A DNA stretch of 32,000 nucleotides. Origin: Candidatus Saccharimonadota bacterium (GTDB lineage Bacteria; Patescibacteriota; Gracilibacteria; BD1-5; UBA2023). This document shows positions 6,640 through 27,709 of this stretch, piece by piece. Below the pieces are notes generated by a model. That model was not told where the DNA came from and searched no databases. It saw nothing but the letters and a program-made list of their open reading frames with translations. Numbering within the stretch: the stretch's first letter is position 1; the number at the start of each line of letters is the position of its first letter. The position numbers and the translations under genes are program-made. The DNA lies in NCBI GenBank assembly GCA_046350815.1, contig JAXLZO010000001.1:900001-932000 (forward strand), read 5' to 3'.

Positions 6640-7266
6640 AGAACTTCTCTCAGTGGTGATGTACTACGATATTAGCACATACTCTGAAAAATGCAAATTT
6701 ATTTCCATCCTTGGGTCCAAAACCCTGTTTGCTTTCAAGCCGATTGTAACTAGAGTGTCAAGTGTATACATGACTCAATATAAATCAACATGGTGTACCG
6801 AAAAGCATCACATGCTGTCTATGACTGCAGGTATCACATAGTATGGATTACGAAATATAGAAGAAAATGTCTTACGAAACCAATTCAAGAATCAGTACAA
6901 CGAATCATAGAATGAATCTGCAAAGAACTCTACATCACACCCATTGCTATTGGTATGGAAGAAGATCATATACATGTATATCTGAGTATTCCTCTTGTAC
7001 ATCCAATTCCATTTGTAGTCCAAATGTTTAAATGAAGAAGCTCACACCATATATGGACCGATACAATATTTAAGTCTCATCTAAAAAACTTCTATTGGTG
7101 AGAAAAGAAATCTCTCTGGGCAGTGTGATACTTTTGTACAACAGTCTGAGCAGTAGATGGAGATATCATCAAAAAATATGTAGAACAACAATGAAAAGAA
7201 GATGTCGAAGGTGCAGAAATAGAAATTTAAAGCAAAACAAAAGCCACGGCGCTTTAGACCGTGGCT
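6640..7266 (+). mobile_element. IS200-type insertion sequence (tnpA only); the left boundary is approximate
   Basis: Y1/HUH transposase gene plus a 3' subterminal hairpin AGCCACGG-N9-CCGTGGCT (7242-7266). No tnpB. Confidence 0.6.
6790..7230 (+). CDS. tnpA: IS200/IS605-family Y1 (HUH) transposase TnpA (146 aa)
   Basis: 'YDCRYHIVWITKYRRK', 'DHIHVYLSIP', 'KG(TGA)RSS', 'YWG(TGA)EKKSLWAVG(TGA)YFCTTVG(TGA)AV', 'KKYVEQQ'. Six in-frame TGA. Confidence 0.9.
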
Positions 7267-7895
7267 AGATCGGTTGAGAGATTTTTACTTCATAAGTAAA
7301 ATTTTTCGTATTCTTCACCCTGAAAACTCTCCTCCATCACACTCTTTCCCACTCGCTCCACATCCTCGATATTTGCCTTGAGCAGGCTGATCTGACTATC
7401 AATATTGCCAAATACCTCATCGAGCTTCGCGACGATTTTGGATTGGGTGGAGAGGGGTGGGAGGGGGATTTCGACTTCTTTTAACTTTGTAGAAGAAAGC
7501 TCCTTAAAGGTCGTACCTGATCCTAAACTATTCAATAAATCTCTAGAATTGAGCAAGAAGTAATAGAGATAAATATAGTTTAATTCGCTTCATGGTACTA
7601 ATCATTTGCATCATTGATTTGTACACATTGGTACTGTATTAATAGCAAGATGACCAATAGGAGCACGAGATGAAAGAATAACAGAATTTATAGGAACTAT
7701 TTTTACTGATGAGTTATCAACTCCAGATTGTGTAATAGTTCTTGATGTATCCGATACATAAATATCCCCAAGTTGTCACATATCTTTCGGAGTAATCCAA
7801 AAAATACCCCCACTCCAATATTCTTGAATAGTTGTATCAGGAGTTCATCAATTTATAATTTCACAGACTTCGAAGAGTTTTTTTGTTGGGTACAT
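7254..7895 (-). CDS. hsdS: type I restriction-modification specificity subunit HsdS, single-TRD half-size form (213 aa)
   Basis: 'INGGTP..EYWSGGIFWITPKD', 'SSRAPIGHLAI', 'CTNQGCKGLVPG', 'FLLNSRD..GSGTTFKEL', 'IPLPPLSTQSKIVAKLD'. Many Gly are encoded by TGA. The TAA stop at 7254 lies inside the IS200 end hairpin. Confidence 0.85.
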
Positions 7896-7896
7896 T

Positions 7897-8004
7897 GATT
7901 TTATCAAATAACGATCAAATAAAGAATTGGCTTCTATAAAGGAAAATATTGAAATATATCTGAAATATCTAGGAATTTATCAAATAACCATCAAATAAGA
8001 ATTA
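7897..8004. repeat. two copies of a ~28-bp direct repeat flanking the hsdS upstream region
   Basis: TTTATCAAATAACGATCAAATAAAGAATT (7898-7926) versus TTTATCAAATAACCATCAAATAAGAATT (7977-8004): one mismatch and one indel. Each unit contains ATCAAATAA twice. Confidence 0.6.
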
Positions 8005-9468
8005 ATTTACCCAAAAAGGTATATATTTTCTATGTTTTCTTGTCTTACTATTTGGATCAAATGGCTTAATCTTTCATAAATCAACTGCTCATTTTATCAG
8101 TCTCGATGCAATTGCTGAATTCTGCTTTTCGATATTAAAACGATCACAGACAGAATCATTTGTCATAGCTTCATTTTCGAGGATGTAAGTAAGTACACAA
8201 TGCCAATAAATTGCTTGTGCTTTTTCATCATTCGTGAGCTTCGAAATCGACTTATAACGATAAAGTGTCACTCGTGTAAAATCATCACTCTTCTCTATTT
8301 TTGGATTTGGTAGTTTTTCTACCTGGAGTGCTGCTAACGCTCGATCAACTCAACTTCATCTTTTTTCACAGTGTCCTGCTCGTCTCATAAAATCAGCAAT
8401 AATCTCATTTCTTGATTTTGGGGGATGATCAAGAAACCTATCAACTTCGATCAACGGAGTCCCAGGGTTTGAGATCTCAATTCTATCATCATAAATTTCG
8501 ATAAGCACTTCAGATCACTTTGTATGAAAATCCTGATGAATAATAGCATTTGCTATAAATTCACGAAGCGTCACTTTAGGGTAATTCGTTTCACTTTTAC
8601 GAATGATCTCAATGTTTTCGATTTTTGGGATCTGTGAAATGACATAATTGATAAGACCCGGAAATGCGATAGCAAATCACTTGGATCATTTTTGATCATT
8701 TATGGTATGAAGTTTGTTGTTTCATCTGTATGTTACCACCCTTGGAGACTTGCTTTTTAGTCCAAAATTTGCAAGGTCTCTTGCAAAGAGAAATGCACAA
8801 GCATTAGTAATATCAAAAAGTCCATCGCGAGGTATTATAAGATTTTCTTGCACAAGCTTTTCTTTGGCGTTATCTTCGGAAATGGGGTCATATTTCATAG
8901 CCTCACAGTATCATTTCCAATCAATTAATTCAAAGATATCCACCTCAGTAACACGAGACATAGCAATGTCTGTATCAAAATTAGAATGAAGAAGAGTCTC
9001 CCAAAGTTGAGCTTCTAGTGTTTTAGATTGTTTAACGGGCTTAGTATAGCTTTCGATGCGAATGTAAGATACGTTTTCATATGTCACTGGCGAGATTGTA
9101 GCGGGTTGGATAATACATACTACCATTCTTAGTGAGTCCTTGTAATCATTAACTTCAAAAAAATTGAATCAAAAAAATCAAGATAATTGTCGTTGTAAAT
9201 AGGGTATAAGATCCTCATTTCATTTTCCTTTTTGAAGTCTTGGGTTGAAAGTTGTTCCGACAGGAGAATGATCATCAGGATTGATTCCAAAAATGATATA
9301 AGCATCAGATCGTCAGTGAATTCTTGCCATATTAGCGAGAGCGGAAATATTTGCCCCCAGTTCTTCGGTAGAATGAAAGTTTTGCTTAAATTCACACCAA
9401 GGGAGTTCTAATTTTTTTCACTCAGACAGGCAATAGTCTATGATTTGAATTATTTTTGATGATTCCAT
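8002..9468 (-). CDS. AlbA_2 (Schlafen-like) + HATPase_c_4 + C-terminal wHTH ATP-binding protein (488 aa)
   Basis: N-terminus 'ELPWCEFKQNF...ISALANMA..GRSDAYIIFGI', middle 'LREFIANAIIHQDF..IEIYDDRIEISNPG..SRNEIIADFMRRAGHCEKRG(TGA)SG(TGA)VDR', C-terminus 'KYIPFWVN'. About 20 in-frame TGA. Starts 7 nt after the hsdR stop. Confidence 0.8.
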
Positions 9469-9475
9469 ATATTTC

Positions 9476-11782
9476 TTACTTACTATATAAACTCTCCTGT
9501 ACTCGGTAGTACGCCTCACGGAGTGCTTTGTTGCCTCCGAATGCCTTGGCAAGATCCGTGGTTGTCCCTTGGGCGAAGAGCTTGATCTTAGCTGAAAGAT
9601 CACTCGGTCCAAAATCTCGGATCCCATTGCGAACGTAGAGCGAGAGAAGAAAATCGATGAAATTTTGTGCGGTGAGTGACTCGTATGGTGTGATGACACC
9701 CTCAGCAAATGACCGACGTTCCTCGCGATAGTGGATCGGTGATCCAAAGGAGAGATGGGCGAGGATATCGAATATATCCGAGTCCTCAGCCTCGAACATC
9801 CTCGTGAGGTCCTCGATCTGATCATCTCCGATCCCGAATGATGAGAGATGTGAGAGGAGGGCGGTGCGGGTGTCCGGATCTGCCCAGATTTTGCGAAGCT
9901 CTGATTCATCACTGTAGAGAGATGGAAGCTTGAGTGCGAGCTTGTGGAGGAAGTCTCTCGATGAGAGGAGTTTGCCGGTCTCAGGGTCGATGTAGCGAGT
10001 CTCGATATCGATCACCTTGATCTCACGATCAGAGTCGAGTCGGACGACGAGTGTCTCGGTTCTTGGTTTTGGTTCTCTCGGTACAATATCTCACATATCT
10101 CCTCCATTTGGTGGATTGTGTGGTGGGGGAGTTGCTGGATCTTCCATAACACCACCATCCCATATCTCATCCCGAAAGGTATTGGTCGCACCAGTGAAAT
10201 CATAGATCGTGAAAAAATCCTTGCCATCATAGAGGCGAGTCCCACGACCGATGATCTGCTTGTACTCGACGATGGATCCGATATTTCGCACGAGGACGAT
10301 ATTGCGGACATTGAGCGCATCGACTCCCGTTGTGAGCATTTGAGAGCTCGTGAGGATCGTCGGGATCGTCTTGTCATTGTCCTGAAATCGCTCAAGATAC
10401 GCTCGACCAATCTCTTTTTCATCTGAGGTCACACGCACACAATAGTCTGGATCGCTGATAGTCTTGTATTTGTTGATCGCGTCTCGCATCTTGAGTGCAT
10501 GAGTCTGATCCACACAAAATATGATGGTCTTGTCCATCGGTCGGATCTGTCGGAGGATCTCCGCTGCTATGAAGTCTGTCCGTTCATCCACGATAATCGA
10601 TCGGTCAAAATCATTAGCAAGATAGACTCATTTTTTGTCTTCCCCTTGGATGATCTGATCTCCACTCGTGAGAGCGAGTTCGTCGATATTGAGCTTGATT
10701 CTTTTGATCTTGAATGACGTGAGGAATCCATCATCGATCCCTTGGGCGAGGGAGTATTCGTAGACGGGCTTGCCAAAATAGTTGTAGGTATCGACATTAT
10801 CGTCTCGCTTCGGAGTTGCGGTGAGTCCGAGGTGAACGGCAGGGGAGAAGTACTTGAGGATCTCTGCCCAGTTGCCATCCTCTCTCGCACCACCTCGATG
10901 ACACTCATCGATGATGATGAGATCAAAAAAATCTCTCTCGTATCGATTGTAATATGACTCGAGAATTTCTTCCGGGTTCTCCTCACTTGCACCACCTGAG
11001 AGCGCCTGATAGATAGCGAAGAAGATATTCGCATTCGTCGGGACGACTCATCATCGTCTCTTGATCTCGGATCCATTGATCTTGAGACAGTCTTTCTCCA
11101 GCGGGTTGAATGTATTCATCGCCTGATCCACGAGAATATTGCGATCGGCGAGGATGAGGATACGAGGTCGACGAGTGCCGATCCCATCACGAGACCACCG
11201 AGTTTGAAAGAGCTTGTACGCGACCTGAAAAGCAATCACTGTCTTACCGGTACCGGTCGCGAGGGTGAGGAGGATACGATCTCTACCTTCAGCAATATTC
11301 TCCATTACCCGAGAGATGGCGATCTCCTGATAGTATCTCGGACGCTTTGCAGAGACAAAATACGGCTCCCTGAGGAGAATCTCTTTAGCATGATTATCCG
11401 ATCCGATCACTCTCTGATAGAGCTCCTCAGGTGTCGGATATCGCTCGATAAAATCTCACTTGCCAAGGGTGAGATCAAACTCATAAATCTCCCGTCCATT
11501 CGTCGAGTAGACATATCGCAGAGCGAGAATTTTTCCGTATTCCTTGACCTGTTCGAGTCACTCAGTCGGATGGAGATCGTATTTTTTCGCTTCGATAGTA
11601 GCAAGATTGACCCCGTTGTATTTGAGAAGATAGTCGGCAAATTTTTGCTTGCCTTTGCCACCGACAAACTTGCGTCCATTGGTGAAGGTATACTCACGGA
11701 TGATGTGTGACTCGTCCCATCAGTCAGATCGTAGCTTCGGATCTATGTATTTTGCTCGGGTGTCGGATTCGGAGTGGGTCAT
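9476..11782 (-). CDS. hsdR: type I restriction enzyme R subunit HsdR (768 aa) with an EcoEI-type C-terminal domain
   Basis: 'TRAKYIDPKLRSDG(TGA)W', 'RYYQEIAI', 'LATGTGKT', 'IIIDECHRG', 'LGLTATP', 'SSQMLTTGVD', 'QIIGRGTR', C-terminus 'ELRKIWADPDTR..'. Seven in-frame TGA, TAA stop. The full frame was checked by hand. Confidence 0.9.
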
Positions 11783-15162: not shown

Positions 15163-15237
15163 TCCTCGATAGCTCAGTGGTAGAGCAACTGGCTGTTAAC
15201 CAGTGGGTCACAGGTTCGAGCCCTGTTCGGGGAGCCA
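15163..15237 (+). tRNA. tRNA-Asn (anticodon GTT), CCA encoded
   Basis: Acceptor stem TCCTCGA/TCGGGGA, D arm GCTC..GAGC, anticodon loop CTGTTAA, T arm ACAGG-TTCGAGC-CCTGT. Confidence 0.95.
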
Positions 15238-23249: not shown

Positions 23250-23630
23250 CTAGGGTTTTGTCCCCAGAAGCCCATATTGATGAAAAAGCTTCGTTCCAGA
23301 GGGATACGCATTGAGTGCGAGCAAAGCGCGGCAATAGGTGTTCATATTGTATTTCAGCAATTGTGCCAAAATATTTTCGTACCAAAAGGTCTCAATTTTT
23401 TGACCATTTGGGTGAACGATCATAAAAACATACTTCTCCTTGGTTACTGGTGGCCGCTCTACCTCACTTACCTTTTGCTCATCATAGATTGGGACAAGTA
23501 AGGTCTTGAGAGGACCTTGTTCAGCTTCCATCTTCGTCATCTCAACCAGAAACGCTGTTTGGCTTATTCGTGACTTAAGATAGTTTTCAAGCGAAAACCG
23601 TGTTTTTTCTACAGCTGCTAACGAACTCAT
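23250..23630 (-). CDS. hypothetical protein (126 aa)
   Basis: Intact ORF with a TAG stop and no TGA. AGGAGA Shine-Dalgarno 5 nt upstream of the ATG. Has its own terminator. Confidence 0.6.
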   Translation of the reverse strand: MSSLAAVEKTRFSLENYLKSRISQTAFLVEMTKMEAEQGPLKTLLVPIYDEQKVSEVERPPVTKEKYVFMIVHPNGQKIETFWYENILAQLLKYNMNTYCRALLALNAYPSGTKLFHQYGLLGTKP

Positions 23631-24342: not shown

Positions 24343-25584
24343 TTATTTCGTAATAGAACAATATGATATAAATATGTCCTGTACTTCTATACTATTCTTG
24401 TCTCATGATATAATATCTTGTATTTCTTCCCGTATTTCTTCCCATATATCCCTAAACATGGCCTGGTACTCAAATGGCACATTCATCTGAAGAAAATGAA
24501 TGAAAGTCTGTGAGTATACATCTATATCTTTCATCTTTAACTCTTTGATAACAACTCAAAGTTCTTTTTGACTCATAGTTATTTTGAGCGATTTTCATGT
24601 AAGAGCTCGCAAGAGCAAGGTAGTTGCAGAAAAAGAATCCAAATCATGATTTCATTGAGTAATCTTATGCCATTTACTCATAATTTCTGATTCCCCATGG
24701 CTCATAGCAAGAACACTGGTATCAGAGATATTCAAATAAGGAAGAAAATCTGGTACACCCTTTTGATGTCCTTTCATTTCAACGAGCATATGAGATACAT
24801 TTCGATGGAGTAACTGAGAAATGATTTTATATTGTTTTTCGGGTACTTTCTTTAGAATTTCATCAAATATCAGTGCTTTTTGCACGTCTTTTCAGAATCA
24901 TTTACTGCGAACATGCGCAACAATCACCTTAAGATCAGTAGTGTTCAATTGATCCATCGGTCGGTTGAATGGATGAAAATGAGAAAGAAGAAATGAGAGA
25001 ATCACATGATCAGCCATAACATGAGTATCTTTATATTCTTCATGTATTTTCTGAAACTGCATATCATCTTGATATACCTGTTTCATACACCAGAGAGCAG
25101 CTTCAACCTTTGCTTTATTTTCTTCGCTTGCTTCTTGGAGTGAAAGAAATTTAGCATATCATTCCCCTTGAAGCGAAAATTGTTGATAGAGATTTGTTAG
25201 ATCAGATGAATGTTTGAATGAATCAAACGATGCATCGAGAAAAGAGTTCGAATGAAATTCTTTAAGCATCGTTGATCATCATCGTGAATGTGCAAGAATC
25301 GATTGATTTTGAAGAGAAAGTGCTGCACGATCCAGATCACCTTCACAGGTTGCCTGAAGATAAAGACTCACAAGATTCACAATCCGAATGCGAGCCTCCT
25401 CTATACTCGGGCGTAAGTTTTTATTTCCAAATACTCCCGCAATTTGAACAATACCTTGTGGAGCTTCGTTGATAATTTCTTGCACTCGCTCCCGAGTGAT
25501 AATTCCCGATAAAACTCCATGTTGCAAAGCTTGCTCAAAAAATGGTTGATCGTTATGAATAGTGAGTTGATTATGAATTGTCAT
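24343..25584 (-). CDS. hypothetical protein (413 aa), re-joined from three track ORFs
   Basis: ORFs 25279..25584, 24898..25086 and 24652..24885 share one frame and are separated only by TGA (9 in total, including the tandem TGA-TGA at 25276-25281). TAA stop at 24343. Confidence 0.6.
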
Positions 25585-25649
25585 GTGTATGATTGAAAAT
25601 TAAGAGTAGATCTCTTCTGCTGAGGGTAGAAACATTCTATCATCCGAAG

Positions 25650-25683
25650 AAAAGATCAACCTGGAGCTCCTTGCATCCAGGTT
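25650..25683 (-). terminator. hairpin (possible terminator or attenuator) after the J-domain cassette
   Basis: AACCTGGA-N10-TCCAGGTT stem, followed on the minus strand by GATCTTTTCTTC. Confidence 0.4.
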
Positions 25684-25702
25684 GAGTTAAATTTTTATTC
25701 CA

Positions 25703-26398
25703 TTACAAAGCAGAATTTTCATCCGCTTGTTCAGGAATTTTCGGTTCATTATTCTTGTTGTTTTCTTGAAGTTCCAACGCATCAGACATGGTACGTTCTT
25801 GACGTTCCGAATTCTGCATGATGCGCGTATGCATGGATGCTGCACATTGATACACTGATTCCCAGAAATCTGGAAAGCCTTCACGGAGCTCAAAAGCAAA
25901 TTGCTTCCACTCTCCGTCCAGCACTTCACTATGAGTATCTGGTTCATCAGAGCCAAGGTTGAAAGTCATGTAACGTTGAAAATGCACGATCCGTTCATAA
26001 TTTTGTCCGCCACGACTCAGCAAATAGATTGCAAGGATATCCTCACAGCTACATTCTGAGATCTTGGTGAAAAACTCAGATCGTTCCTGCTCATCACGAG
26101 CCATCACAACAGAATTGATTAAACCTTCCAGTTTATTCAATTCGTTGTACTGGCGTTCCAGCATGAGCATTGCGATGAACTGATCAACCCCGACAAGCAG
26201 ACTCAGGGGCGAAGATTTAGAACAATCAAATTCACGCACAATCAAGCTGAGATGTTTTGGTTCCATCTCATCCAAAAGGGCGCGAAGCTGCTGATCGCCA
26301 TGCTTTTCGGCAAATGCAACCAACGAACGCTCGGCAGAACCGAATGCACCAAGCACTGCAAGCTCGGAAACTTGCGAGATTACAAGAGACTGATTCAT
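25703..26398 (-). CDS. hypothetical protein (231 aa), third gene of the J-domain cassette
   Basis: Intact ORF with a TAA stop. 10 Gly, none encoded by TGA. Starts 6 nt after the upstream stop. Acidic/polar C-terminal tail. Confidence 0.75.
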   Translation of the reverse strand: MNQSLVISQVSELAVLGAFGSAERSLVAFAEKHGDQQLRALLDEMEPKHLSLIVREFDCSKSSPLSLLVGVDQFIAMLMLERQYNELNKLEGLINSVVMARDEQERSEFFTKISECSCEDILAIYLLSRGGQNYERIVHFQRYMTFNLGSDEPDTHSEVLDGEWKQFAFELREGFPDFWESVYQCAASMHTRIMQNSERQERTMSDALELQENNKNNEPKIPEQADENSAL

Positions 26399-26404
26399 GA
26401 TCTT

Positions 26405-26899
26405 TTACTCCGAATCAATGGGATCGAGGCCGGTTAAGTTCGGGGCTTCATTCTCACCCCAGTCGCTATCCACATCGGGGCTACCGTCGTGGATGACAAC
26501 CTTTTCCTTGGCAACAGTAGACTTCTGAGTAAACAGAAATTCCATTGCAATTGCGAAAATAAGGAGAAATTCACCATTTTTGTATTTCAGAACCTGTTCA
26601 ACAAGCTCTTGATCTGCAAAAATCACATCTTCTTTCAGAATTTCCCAGGTCGGGAAATCTTCCAGATCGTTTGCAACCAGTCGTTTTACACGAGCAATGT
26701 TGGCAAATTTTATAGTGCCATGAAAAATCGGCGCCACTATTTCCGGAAAATCCGCAGACATTGGCATAAGAGTATCAAGTGATGACCGCTTTGCAGCGAT
26801 ATTCTCCTTGAATTGATCTTCACCACGAGCACCAGCAAGATCCTGAAGCTCAGCTTGGTAGGAGCCCAATGCTCCTTGAAAATAATCACTTACTTGCAT
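26405..26899 (-). CDS. hypothetical protein (164 aa), second gene of the J-domain cassette
   Basis: Intact ORF with a TAA stop. 9 Gly, none encoded by TGA. The ATG overlaps the J-domain gene's end by 10 nt, with a GAGGGTG Shine-Dalgarno upstream. Acidic C-terminal tail. Confidence 0.75.
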   Translation of the reverse strand: MQVSDYFQGALGSYQAELQDLAGARGEDQFKENIAAKRSSLDTLMPMSADFPEIVAPIFHGTIKFANIARVKRLVANDLEDFPTWEILKEDVIFADQELVEQVLKYKNGEFLLIFAIAMEFLFTQKSTVAKEKVVIHDGSPDVDSDWGENEAPNLTGLDPIDSE

Positions 26900-27174
26900 G
26901 ATAATACACCCTCAATGTAGTTTTGCCAGATTTCTCCGGCAGTTTGGAGTGGATCATCGAGTAGCATACTATTTCGTTTGGAATCATATGCAGCCCGATT
27001 TTCCGGATCAGAGAGGCATTGGTATGCCTCGGTCACAGCGTGAAATTCTCGAATAAAATCTGGATCACCCTGATTTTTATCGGGATGATAGAGTTTTACC
27101 TTACGGTGGTAAGCTAAGCGAACTTCTTCTTGCGAGGCATTCGCTGATATACCTAGTATCGTATAGTGGTCCAT
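26890..27174 (-). CDS. stand-alone J-domain protein (94 aa)
   Basis: 'DHYTILGISANASQEEVRLAYHRKVKLYHPDKNQGDP...FHAVTEAYQCLSDPENRAAYD' is a canonical DnaJ J-domain with the HPD motif. No G/F or zinc-finger region. Confidence 0.9.
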   Translation of the reverse strand: MDHYTILGISANASQEEVRLAYHRKVKLYHPDKNQGDPDFIREFHAVTEAYQCLSDPENRAAYDSKRNSMLLDDPLQTAGEIWQNYIEGVLSCK

Positions 27175-27353
27175 AATGGACCCCCCATGAAAACAAGAAT
27201 GTAAATGAACAATCCTATCTTGCGACAGGAACTTTTGTATATTATATATTATTCATAAATATGCAAGTACTATAAAATCAGATATTTTTCATAGTACTAT
27301 CAAGCGTTTTGCCTAAAATACACCAAAATAGAGTTATTTTTCACAAAGAAATA

Positions 27354-27423: not shown

Positions 27424-27540
27424 CATACTTCGTTCTGGTCATACTATTTCTTTCTCGGATCTCTGAGAGGGTGTTTTATGGGCAAATAGATATATCTATG
27501 ATCCATGAAAAAACTTCTCACTGTTGGGAAGTTTTTTATT
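27424..27540 (+). repeat. tandem element copy 1 (~117 nt): conserved 58-nt core, variable tail, intrinsic terminator
   Basis: The 58-nt core CATACTTCGTTCTGGTCATACTATTTCTTTCTCGGATCTCTGAGAGGGTGTTTTATGG is identical to 27591-27648. It ends in a CTTCTCA-CTGT-TGGGAAG hairpin plus T6. Confidence 0.75.
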
Positions 27541-27590: not shown

Positions 27591-27709
27591 CATACTTCGT
27601 TCTGGTCATACTATTTCTTTCTCGGATCTCTGAGAGGGTGTTTTATGGCATAGAAAGTATCTATAGTATCCATTTACAACCTTCTCACCAAGAAGGTTTT
27701 TTATTTTTT
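27591..27709 (+). repeat. tandem element copy 2 (~119 nt), ending 14 nt before the ATP-grasp gene
   Basis: Same 58-nt core. The tail shares TATCTAT..TCCAT with copy 1. Ends in an AACCTTCT-CACCA-AGAAGGTT hairpin plus a T run. Confidence 0.75.

Follow-up and report, generated by a model that had tools for sequence, protein, structure and literature searches.

A probable, very divergent atcJABC operon in a Candidatus Gracilibacteria genome with TGA as a glycine codon

Analysis of a 32-kb window of DNA (GCA_046350815.1, contig JAXLZO010000001.1, 900,001-932,000; window positions are used throughout) identified four genes on the minus strand, at 27174..24343, in the order atcJ-atcA-atcB-atcC. We consider it very likely that these genes form an atc ("adaptation to cold") operon, atcJ-atcA-atcB-atcC, in a genome of Candidatus Gracilibacteria whose TGA codons encode glycine, with a mechanism assigned by homology, a reading that follows from four independent similarities, the canonical gene order and diagnostic residues. 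An earlier note on this DNA had described a three-gene cassette, consisting of a J-domain protein and two partners of 164 and 231 aa that could be assigned to no family, as an undescribed system. Both partners are homologues of components of the known, experimentally studied Atc system (AtcA and AtcB), homology of the kind that the note had itself named as refuting its view, and the TGA-rich 413-aa gene downstream, which had been counted as a neighbour, is the fourth member, atcC. Judged from its sequence, the locus adds a new and very divergent member to that system; it is not an undescribed one. With this, a falsely "undescribed system" can be struck from the list of candidates, and the Atc DnaK-RNA polymerase module is extended to a Gracilibacteria lineage with a reassigned stop codon; previously named carriers were mainly Beta- and Gammaproteobacteria, plus single cases in Verrucomicrobium and Solidesulfovibrio (PMC6715715; bioRxiv 10.64898/2026.09.07.749886). 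Should a genome this reduced retain the complete set of four, the module probably matters to more than free-living psychrotrophs.

Gene order and protein identities

The first three open reading frames (ORFs; 94, 164 and 231 aa) were found as previously described, with a 10-nt overlap between atcJ and atcA, a 6-nt gap between atcA and atcB, and a TAA stop in all three (Table 1). Their TGA-free state and the hairpin bounding them were also confirmed, while the reported GC contrast and the three-gene extent were not. Reading TGA as glycine (genetic code 25) is based on the alignment of TGA codons to the invariant glycines of the tyrosine-recombinase motifs LLGH and RGKG and of an M23 peptidase motif, and the TGA codons of atcC align with glycines of a homologue from Undibacterium, which uses code 11. 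Code 4, in which TGA encodes tryptophan, was ruled out because TGA aligns with conserved glycine.

Table 1. Features of the atc locus, with the evidence for each assignment
Feature	Position	Strand	Basis
Promoter-like region and 5' leader of atcJ	27175..27270	-	conservation, consensus scan; putative function
atcJ homologue, 94 aa	26890..27174	-	Pfam DnaJ, NCBIfam AtcJ NF050028
atcA homologue, 164 aa	26405..26899	-	NCBIfam AtcA NF047888, hhalign
atcB homologue, 231 aa	25703..26398	-	family profile, Asp pair
Two-hairpin RNA element in the atcB-atcC spacer	25609..25684	-	conservation, folding
atcC homologue, 413 aa with TGA read as Gly	24343..25584	-	NCBIfam AtcC NF047890, hhalign

The NCBIfam Atc models used for comparison were NF050028, NF047888, NF047889 and NF047890. 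AtcJ is a bare J-domain protein (Pfam DnaJ, 2.6e-23, residues 2-64) with its HPD motif at residues 30-32 (H30-D32), as the stand-alone J-domain reported earlier would have it, and it matches NF050028 from end to end (positions 3-92 of 93, 57.5 bits). Identity to Undibacterium AtcJ is 50% over 90 aa including the tail (E = 2e-31). The C-terminal extension carries P75-X7-W83 (PLQTAGEIW) together with I82 and Y86, in the same numbering as W83 of Collimonas and A83/I82/Y86 of Janthinobacterium, and this P-X7-W tail is the predicted AtcC-binding peptide. Models for HscB and DjlA gave marginal scores on AtcJ that were confined to the J-domain.

AtcA matches NF047888 with E = 2.8e-4, and with 6.3e-6 when the orthologue from L011, a relative with ~60% protein identity, is used; alignment to Undibacterium AtcA gave an hhalign probability of 98.4% (E = 7e-15). 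It has a globular N-terminal part and an acidic, disordered C-terminal tail, with a predicted local distance difference test score (pLDDT) below 40 for residues 125-164 in an AlphaFold2 model whose overall pLDDT of 51 was too poor for a structure search. AtcC matches NF047890 with E = 1.8e-4 (5.7e-5 for the L011 orthologue) and aligns with the 417-aa AtcC of Undibacterium, which carries Pfam DUF8235, over 392 columns (hhalign 99.9%, E = 2.7e-32).

Pfam, in a copy without the newer AtcB_N model, returned nothing for the 164-aa and 231-aa proteins. Since the 231-aa AtcB also gave no direct NCBIfam match, a family profile was used, which found 99 proteins in a library of 1.84 billion. The best matches (1e-25 to 1e-18) were clusters from Undibacterium (E = 2.6e-25), Glaciimonas, Polaromonas/Rhodoferax, Aromatoleum, Deefgea and Dechloromonas; Deefgea, Dechloromonas and Rhodoferax have been named as atc carriers (bioRxiv 10.64898/2026.09.07.749886). 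Six of 37 tested relatives match the NCBIfam AtcB model, and one (P0114) carries Pfam AtcB_N. The protein contains an aspartate pair, D35 (in GD) and D58 (in FD), 23 residues apart. D58 is invariant among 37 homologues and D35 is at least 90% conserved, with the same pair in the Deefgea (D33/D56), Dechloromonas and Undibacterium proteins. In the Atc literature, the RNA polymerase-binding aspartate pairs that were mutated are Son D37/D60, Care D28/D51 and Jab D33/D56, always with a spacing of 23. The AlphaFold2 model of AtcB (pLDDT 82, predicted template modelling score 0.72) is all-helical with a disordered C-terminal tail, and the segment that contains D58 is modelled with low confidence (pLDDT <50) and has no secondary structure assigned to it. 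A Foldseek search with this model found no fold match among solved structures (best E = 0.3, TM-score 0.25). A protein identical to AtcB is annotated from a Candidatus Gracilibacteria metagenome-assembled genome, and one contig bearing an identical protein is 1.28 Mb long.

At the C-terminus of AtcB-like proteins we also observed a motif, (D/E)E(E/N)S[AV][LI], in about half of 48 full-length matches. In the window it forms the end of AtcB as QADENSAL (25703-25726, minus strand), which is invariant in the Gracilibacteria clade. The motif is not mentioned in the Atc publications PMC6715715 and bioRxiv 10.64898/2026.09.07.749886, and it may be a terminal docking motif.

Word-indexed protein searches recovered Gracilibacteria relatives only, a metagenome scan recovered already known clades only, a protein scan of a genome collection (alignment A1) gave no confirmed relatives, and sequence searches of the PDB gave generic J-domains only.

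The hairpin following atcB proved to be the first half of a two-hairpin element in the 118-nt spacer before atcC. Hairpin 1 (25684-25657) is GC-rich, and the U-rich tract that follows it is the 5' arm of hairpin 2 (25657-25609), where it pairs with a downstream purine run. No other DNA in the operon is as conserved as the spacer, which is 95% identical to that of L011 (operon mean 71%), and four-fold degenerate third positions are only 35-50% identical in the same comparison. Folding gave a minimum free energy of -29.7 kcal/mol (z = -2.6). In L030 (GCA_964638285.1), a distant second lineage that uses code 25, both helices persist with altered sequence, hairpin 2 showing five compensatory pairs. 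Rfam gave no match to the element even at E up to 10, and a pattern scan of the genome collection for the spacer DNA gave 0 matches. The spacer is a candidate new cis-regulatory RNA.

Upstream of atcJ, a consensus scan found TTGCAT followed by an AT-rich, TATAAT-like box. The leader contains a hairpin at 27230-27213 (TCCTGTCGCAAGATAGGA) and a purine-rich GGGGGG that resembles a Shine-Dalgarno (SD) site. This promoter-like and leader region is 85-88% identical to L011, again above the operon average.

Comparison with characterised Atc systems and a proposed mechanism

The Atc system of Shewanella oneidensis (SO_1849, SO_1848 and SO_1846 for atcA, atcB and atcC; Maillot et al. 2019, PMC6715715) has the same J-A-B-C order. 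Shared with it are a J-protein of ~94 aa with HPD and a C-terminal P-X7-W, an acidic AtcA tail, and an AtcB aspartate pair 23 residues apart, and AtcC resembles its S. oneidensis counterpart over the N-terminal 200 residues. AtcC is longer here (413 aa versus 298 aa), and atcJ and atcA overlap where S. oneidensis has a 120-bp gap. Also unlike S. oneidensis, the present system has a structured spacer before atcC and a Gracilibacterium host with TGA as glycine. The atc operons of Collimonas arenae and Janthinobacterium sp. B9-8 have also been characterised (bioRxiv 10.64898/2026.09.07.749886).

Betaproteobacterial proteins are the best-scoring relatives of all four Atc proteins. In the Undibacterium locus L029 (J92-A196-B257-C417), AtcC can be aligned with the window protein from end to end, the AtcJ tail is nearly identical (PLETATEIWKNY in Undibacterium versus PLQTAGEIWQNY in the window, with the same W83 numbering), and AtcB ends in EESAL where the window has ENSAL, the same kind of C-terminal motif. 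Its atcB-atcC junction is only 15 nt long and lacks the hairpin element, and its atcJ ends in a TGA that overlaps the start of atcA; such a codon cannot act as a stop under code 25. The four Undibacterium genes are uniform in composition, with a GC content at third codon positions (GC3) of 0.40-0.46. Other dedicated J-proteins, such as HscB with HscA/IscU, DjlA, and CbpA with CbpM, likewise steer Hsp70 to a particular client or place and are encoded beside a partner. These modules have no sequence relationship to the present one beyond the J-domain, and the partners and the client (here RNA polymerase, via AtcB) differ.

Published work describes an interaction network of AtcJ-DnaK, AtcJ-AtcC, AtcC-AtcB and AtcB-RNA polymerase, with a cold phenotype: mutants lacking atcJ, atcB or atcC are cold-sensitive (PMC6715715; bioRxiv 10.64898/2026.09.07.749886). 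By analogy, AtcB would bind RNA polymerase via D35 and D58, and AtcC would act as a bridge that binds both AtcB and the P-X7-W peptide at the AtcJ C-terminus. The HPD motif of AtcJ would switch on the DnaK ATPase, so that DnaK could be delivered to the AtcB-RNA polymerase complex and limit or remodel that inhibitory complex. The predicted outcome is that transcription and chaperone activity become coupled during stresses such as cold, with AtcA and its acidic disordered tail as a putative accessory component. The proposal of the earlier note that the J-protein recruits Hsp70 to operon-encoded partners very probably holds on the same analogy, AtcC being the partner that binds the AtcJ tail in the characterised system. 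The highly conserved, terminator-like two-hairpin element separates atcJAB, which is SD-led and TGA-free, from atcC, which is SD-less and TGA-rich, and this division may give atcJAB and atcC different expression levels.

Several observations weigh against this assignment and mechanism. None of the proteins reaches the NCBIfam equivalog cut-offs (57.5 versus 150 for AtcJ, 20.8 versus 200 for AtcA, no match versus 440 for AtcB and 21.1 versus 370 for AtcC), and AtcA, AtcB and AtcC are only 29-38% identical to those of the nearest operon outside Gracilibacteria. The betaproteobacterial Undibacterium operon likewise falls below the cut-offs, so they delimit a subfamily and the models are narrow. 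Neither dnaK nor rpoC lies inside the 32-kb window. Recognition between AtcB and RNA polymerase is reported in the Atc literature to be lineage-specific, which makes AtcB-RNA polymerase binding in this organism an extrapolation, and the other interactions and the cold phenotype are similarly extrapolated from homologues. The role of the spacer as a putative terminator or attenuator, or as a processing site, that would uncouple atcC from atcJAB is argued from structure and conservation.

Codon usage, conservation and the origin of atcJAB

To place atcJAB among its neighbours, 21 window genes were defined by homology or by conservation in relatives, and the 18 genes other than atcJAB served as the comparison set. 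All 23 glycine codons of atcJAB (4 + 9 + 10) are GGN, as the earlier note had it, whereas TGA accounts for 93 of 321 (29%) in the other 18 genes. The probability of finding no TGA among 23 is 4e-4 in a simple binomial test, 0.003-0.015 when gene-to-gene heterogeneity (overdispersion) is allowed for, and 0.003 when conditioned on GC3; because the signal was selected after the fact, its significance within this window alone is no more than modest. TGA share drops as GC3 rises across the window genes (likelihood-ratio p = 7.5e-5), and rpsO, orf126, nrdB, a K-channel gene and hsdR are likewise TGA-poor or as GC-rich.

The GC contrast had been overstated: where ~50% was reported against 25-33% in flanking genes, GC content is 43.6-44.9% in atcJAB, 38.5% in the window and 39.3 ± 4.1% in the other genes, an excess of ~1.2 standard deviations above the mean. 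Most of this excess is at first codon positions (GC1 0.58-0.61), and it therefore reflects the acidic, Ala-rich amino-acid composition. GC3 is 0.37-0.43 in atcJAB against 0.36 ± 0.08 in other genes, inside the host range. SD-like sites precede atcJ, atcA and atcB, as previously described, and are absent from atcC and from 17 of the 18 other window genes, with none ahead of rpsO or nrdB. atcC also contains nine in-frame TGA codons and has a GC content of 35.5% and a GC3 of 0.27. The TGA/SD/GC3 dichotomy within the operon is real, and, in being TGA-free and SD-led, the block does differ recognizably from its neighbours. Whether highly expressed genes avoid TGA was not addressed in the Gracilibacteria literature that we searched.

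Two side observations concern the same features. The genome appears nearly SD-free: among the 18 non-atc genes, a match of at least 4 nt to AGGAGGTG upstream of the start occurs only in orf126 (23250-23630, minus strand). This gene has no family match, is conserved beside rpsO in relatives and, alone among the window genes outside atcJAB, combines a lack of TGA with an AGGAG site and a higher GC3 (0.44). Within atcC, a tandem TGA-TGA at 25276-25281 (minus strand; codons 102-103) encodes the two glycines of a conserved SRGGS. It is kept in every clade member despite near-saturated synonymous sites, and L030 has TGA-GGA.

The J-A-B-C order occurs in at least eight related loci as well as in Undibacterium, and every clade relative shares the layout, the spacer element and the synteny. 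The larger order atcJABC-rpsO-...-xerC-like is kept in relatives of ~60% protein identity. Within this clade atcJAB lack in-frame TGA, the sole TGA being the terminal one in L011 atcA, and atcC has 5-9 TGA codons, four of them at conserved glycine positions. Among glycine codons specific to a lineage, TGA accounts for 1 of 21 in atcJAB and for 7 of 12 in atcC.

TGA avoidance was also replicated in L030, where none of 23 glycine codons in atcJAB is TGA versus 20 of 58 in other genes (P ~6e-5). Here atcJ, atcA and atcB each have an AGGAG site, and their GC3 (0.46-0.52) exceeds that of host genes and atcC (0.27-0.32). In the same lineage (L030:3205-4669), atcJ and atcB end in TGA though neighbouring genes carry in-frame TGA; read with code 25, atcJ would be 167 codons long and atcB would be 24 codons longer, its added part running through the hairpin. 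These endings suggest that the import was very recent, that the extension is tolerated or that the assembly is chimeric. A chimeric contig is unlikely because both flanks contain in-frame TGA. Traces of a TGA stop are found in the window clade as well. Window atcJ has TGC where Undibacterium and L030 have the TGA stop, and runs two codons on to TAA (TGC-AAG-TAA), while atcA ends in TGA-TAG in L011 and in TAA in the window.

A further cluster was observed in L014 (L014:4244-7390; JGI 3300002026), a low-GC locus that uses code 11. It contains a very divergent J89-A149-B238-C290 arrangement and a 139-aa ORF, with strong AGGAGG-type SD sites and a GC3 of 0.39-0.61, between SD-less genes with a GC3 of ~0.25. 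GC3 falls in the order B > A > J > C > host, as in the window, and TGA is irrelevant to this gradient under code 11.

The earlier note had also interpreted the block as horizontally acquired. Recent horizontal acquisition of the operon is not supported: rpsO synteny is kept in the ~60% identity relatives, so the locus is not a recent island, and the conserved flanks and order are joined by a GC3 inside the host range. Plasmid and phage searches found no relatives of the Atc proteins, and PADLOC gave one marginal match among the four proteins (E = 0.008), in which no individual stretch passed. For atcJAB, an older origin in a genome with TGA as a stop and with SD sites is plausible because of the stop-codon fossils, the SD sites in an SD-less genome and the betaproteobacterial closest relatives.

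Two explanations of the atcJAB signature carry similar weight, each a little less than an even chance, and they are not mutually exclusive. The first combines selection with composition: translation of atcJAB would be stronger than that of atcC, or would take place in special conditions, and their acidic, Ala-rich make-up would make newly arising glycine codons GGN. This fits the fall in TGA share with GC3 and the TGA-poor rpsO, nrdB, orf126 and K-channel genes, as well as the concentration of the GC excess at first codon positions. The conserved terminator-like element and the SD-less start of atcC fit lower atcC expression, the same GC3 gradient recurs under code 11 in L014, and newly arisen glycine codons divide between the two parts of the operon in the same way. 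However, this explanation leaves the TGA-terminated atcJ and atcB of L030 unaccounted for, rpsO and nrdB lack SD sites, and the absence of TGA from atcJAB is still improbable after GC3 conditioning.

The second explanation is a foreign legacy, in which TGA-free, SD-led and GC3-richer atcJAB came from an SD-using donor with TGA as a stop and have a history at least partly separate from that of the native-looking atcC. Here the stop-codon fossils (TGC at the old atcJ TGA, TGA-TAG in L011 atcA and the TGA ends in L030) are consistent with such a donor, as are the SD-like sites, which lie before atcJAB but before only one of 18 other window genes and show the same pattern in L030 and L014. The elevated GC3 of atcJAB in L030 and the betaproteobacterial nearest relatives point the same way. 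Yet atcJAB codon usage in the window clade is inside the host range, synteny and non-coding elements are common to the clade and partly to L030, and L014 has the same GC3 gradient under code 11. The neighbour-joining AtcB tree, which leaves the origin of the code-25 lineages unresolved, nests them in no sampled donor group, and AtcC distances show no separate vertical history. A replacement ending exactly at the atcB-atcC spacer in two lineages would also be odd.

A stronger form of the foreign-legacy explanation, which we regard as doubtful, is that atcJAB form a block that crossed the genetic-code boundary, from a donor with TGA stops and SD sites into Gracilibacteria with TGA as glycine, possibly repeatedly, and was grafted before a resident atcC. 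If so, the locus would preserve stages of stop repair, from the TGA ends of L030 through TGA-TAG in L011 to TGC-AAG-TAA and TAA in the window, and the conserved two-hairpin spacer would mark the junction. The TGA/SD/GC3 contrast within the operon is a small natural test case for the adaptation of genes to, or their transfer across, a code change, and the TGA-terminated genes of L030 provide a second. The codon/SD dichotomy and the conserved spacer RNA merit modest follow-up.

A toxin-antitoxin-like or anti-phage module, with AtcB as an RNA polymerase poison checked by AtcC, AtcJ and DnaK, is very improbable. According to the Atc literature, overproduction of AtcB in Shewanella and E. coli causes toxicity and RNA polymerase inhibition, which AtcC, AtcJ and DnaK relieve, and a type I restriction-modification system lies ~14 kb away from the window operon. 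However, PADLOC gave no meaningful match for any of the four proteins, no phage or plasmid relatives were found, and the neighbourhood beside rpsO is conserved and housekeeping; in published work, the phenotype is sensitivity to cold and the system is reported to be inherited largely vertically. Least credible is the original view of a recently transferred, undescribed three-gene J-domain system that directs Hsp70 to two novel partners, which the blank Pfam results and the TGA-free, somewhat GC-richer atcJAB had suggested, but which conflicts with the match of all components to Atc, including the omitted fourth gene, with gene order and flanks conserved in ~60% identity relatives, and with a GC3 inside the host range.

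Other features of the window

Between the promoter region of atcJ and a divergent gene for a 401-aa ATP-grasp-like protein, a 98-nt direct repeat was observed on the plus strand, with copies at 27424-27521 and 27591-27688 that are 85% identical. Each copy contains a hairpin (CTTTCTCGGATCTCTGAGAGGG) followed by a T-run. No tRNA-Gly(UCA) gene was found within the 32-kb window, and a single tRNA-Asn(GTT) gene is located at 15163-15237 (plus strand).

The most GC-rich gene of the window (GC 49%, GC3 0.55) encodes a type I restriction R subunit with ResIII, HSDR_N and EcoEI_R_C domains (9476-11782, minus strand) and has seven TGA glycine codons. Beside it (7254-7895 and 8002-9468, both on the minus strand) are an HsdS-like gene and a 488-aa ORF that is AlbA/HATPase-like by eye, and this ORF uses TGA for 14 of its 23 glycine codons.

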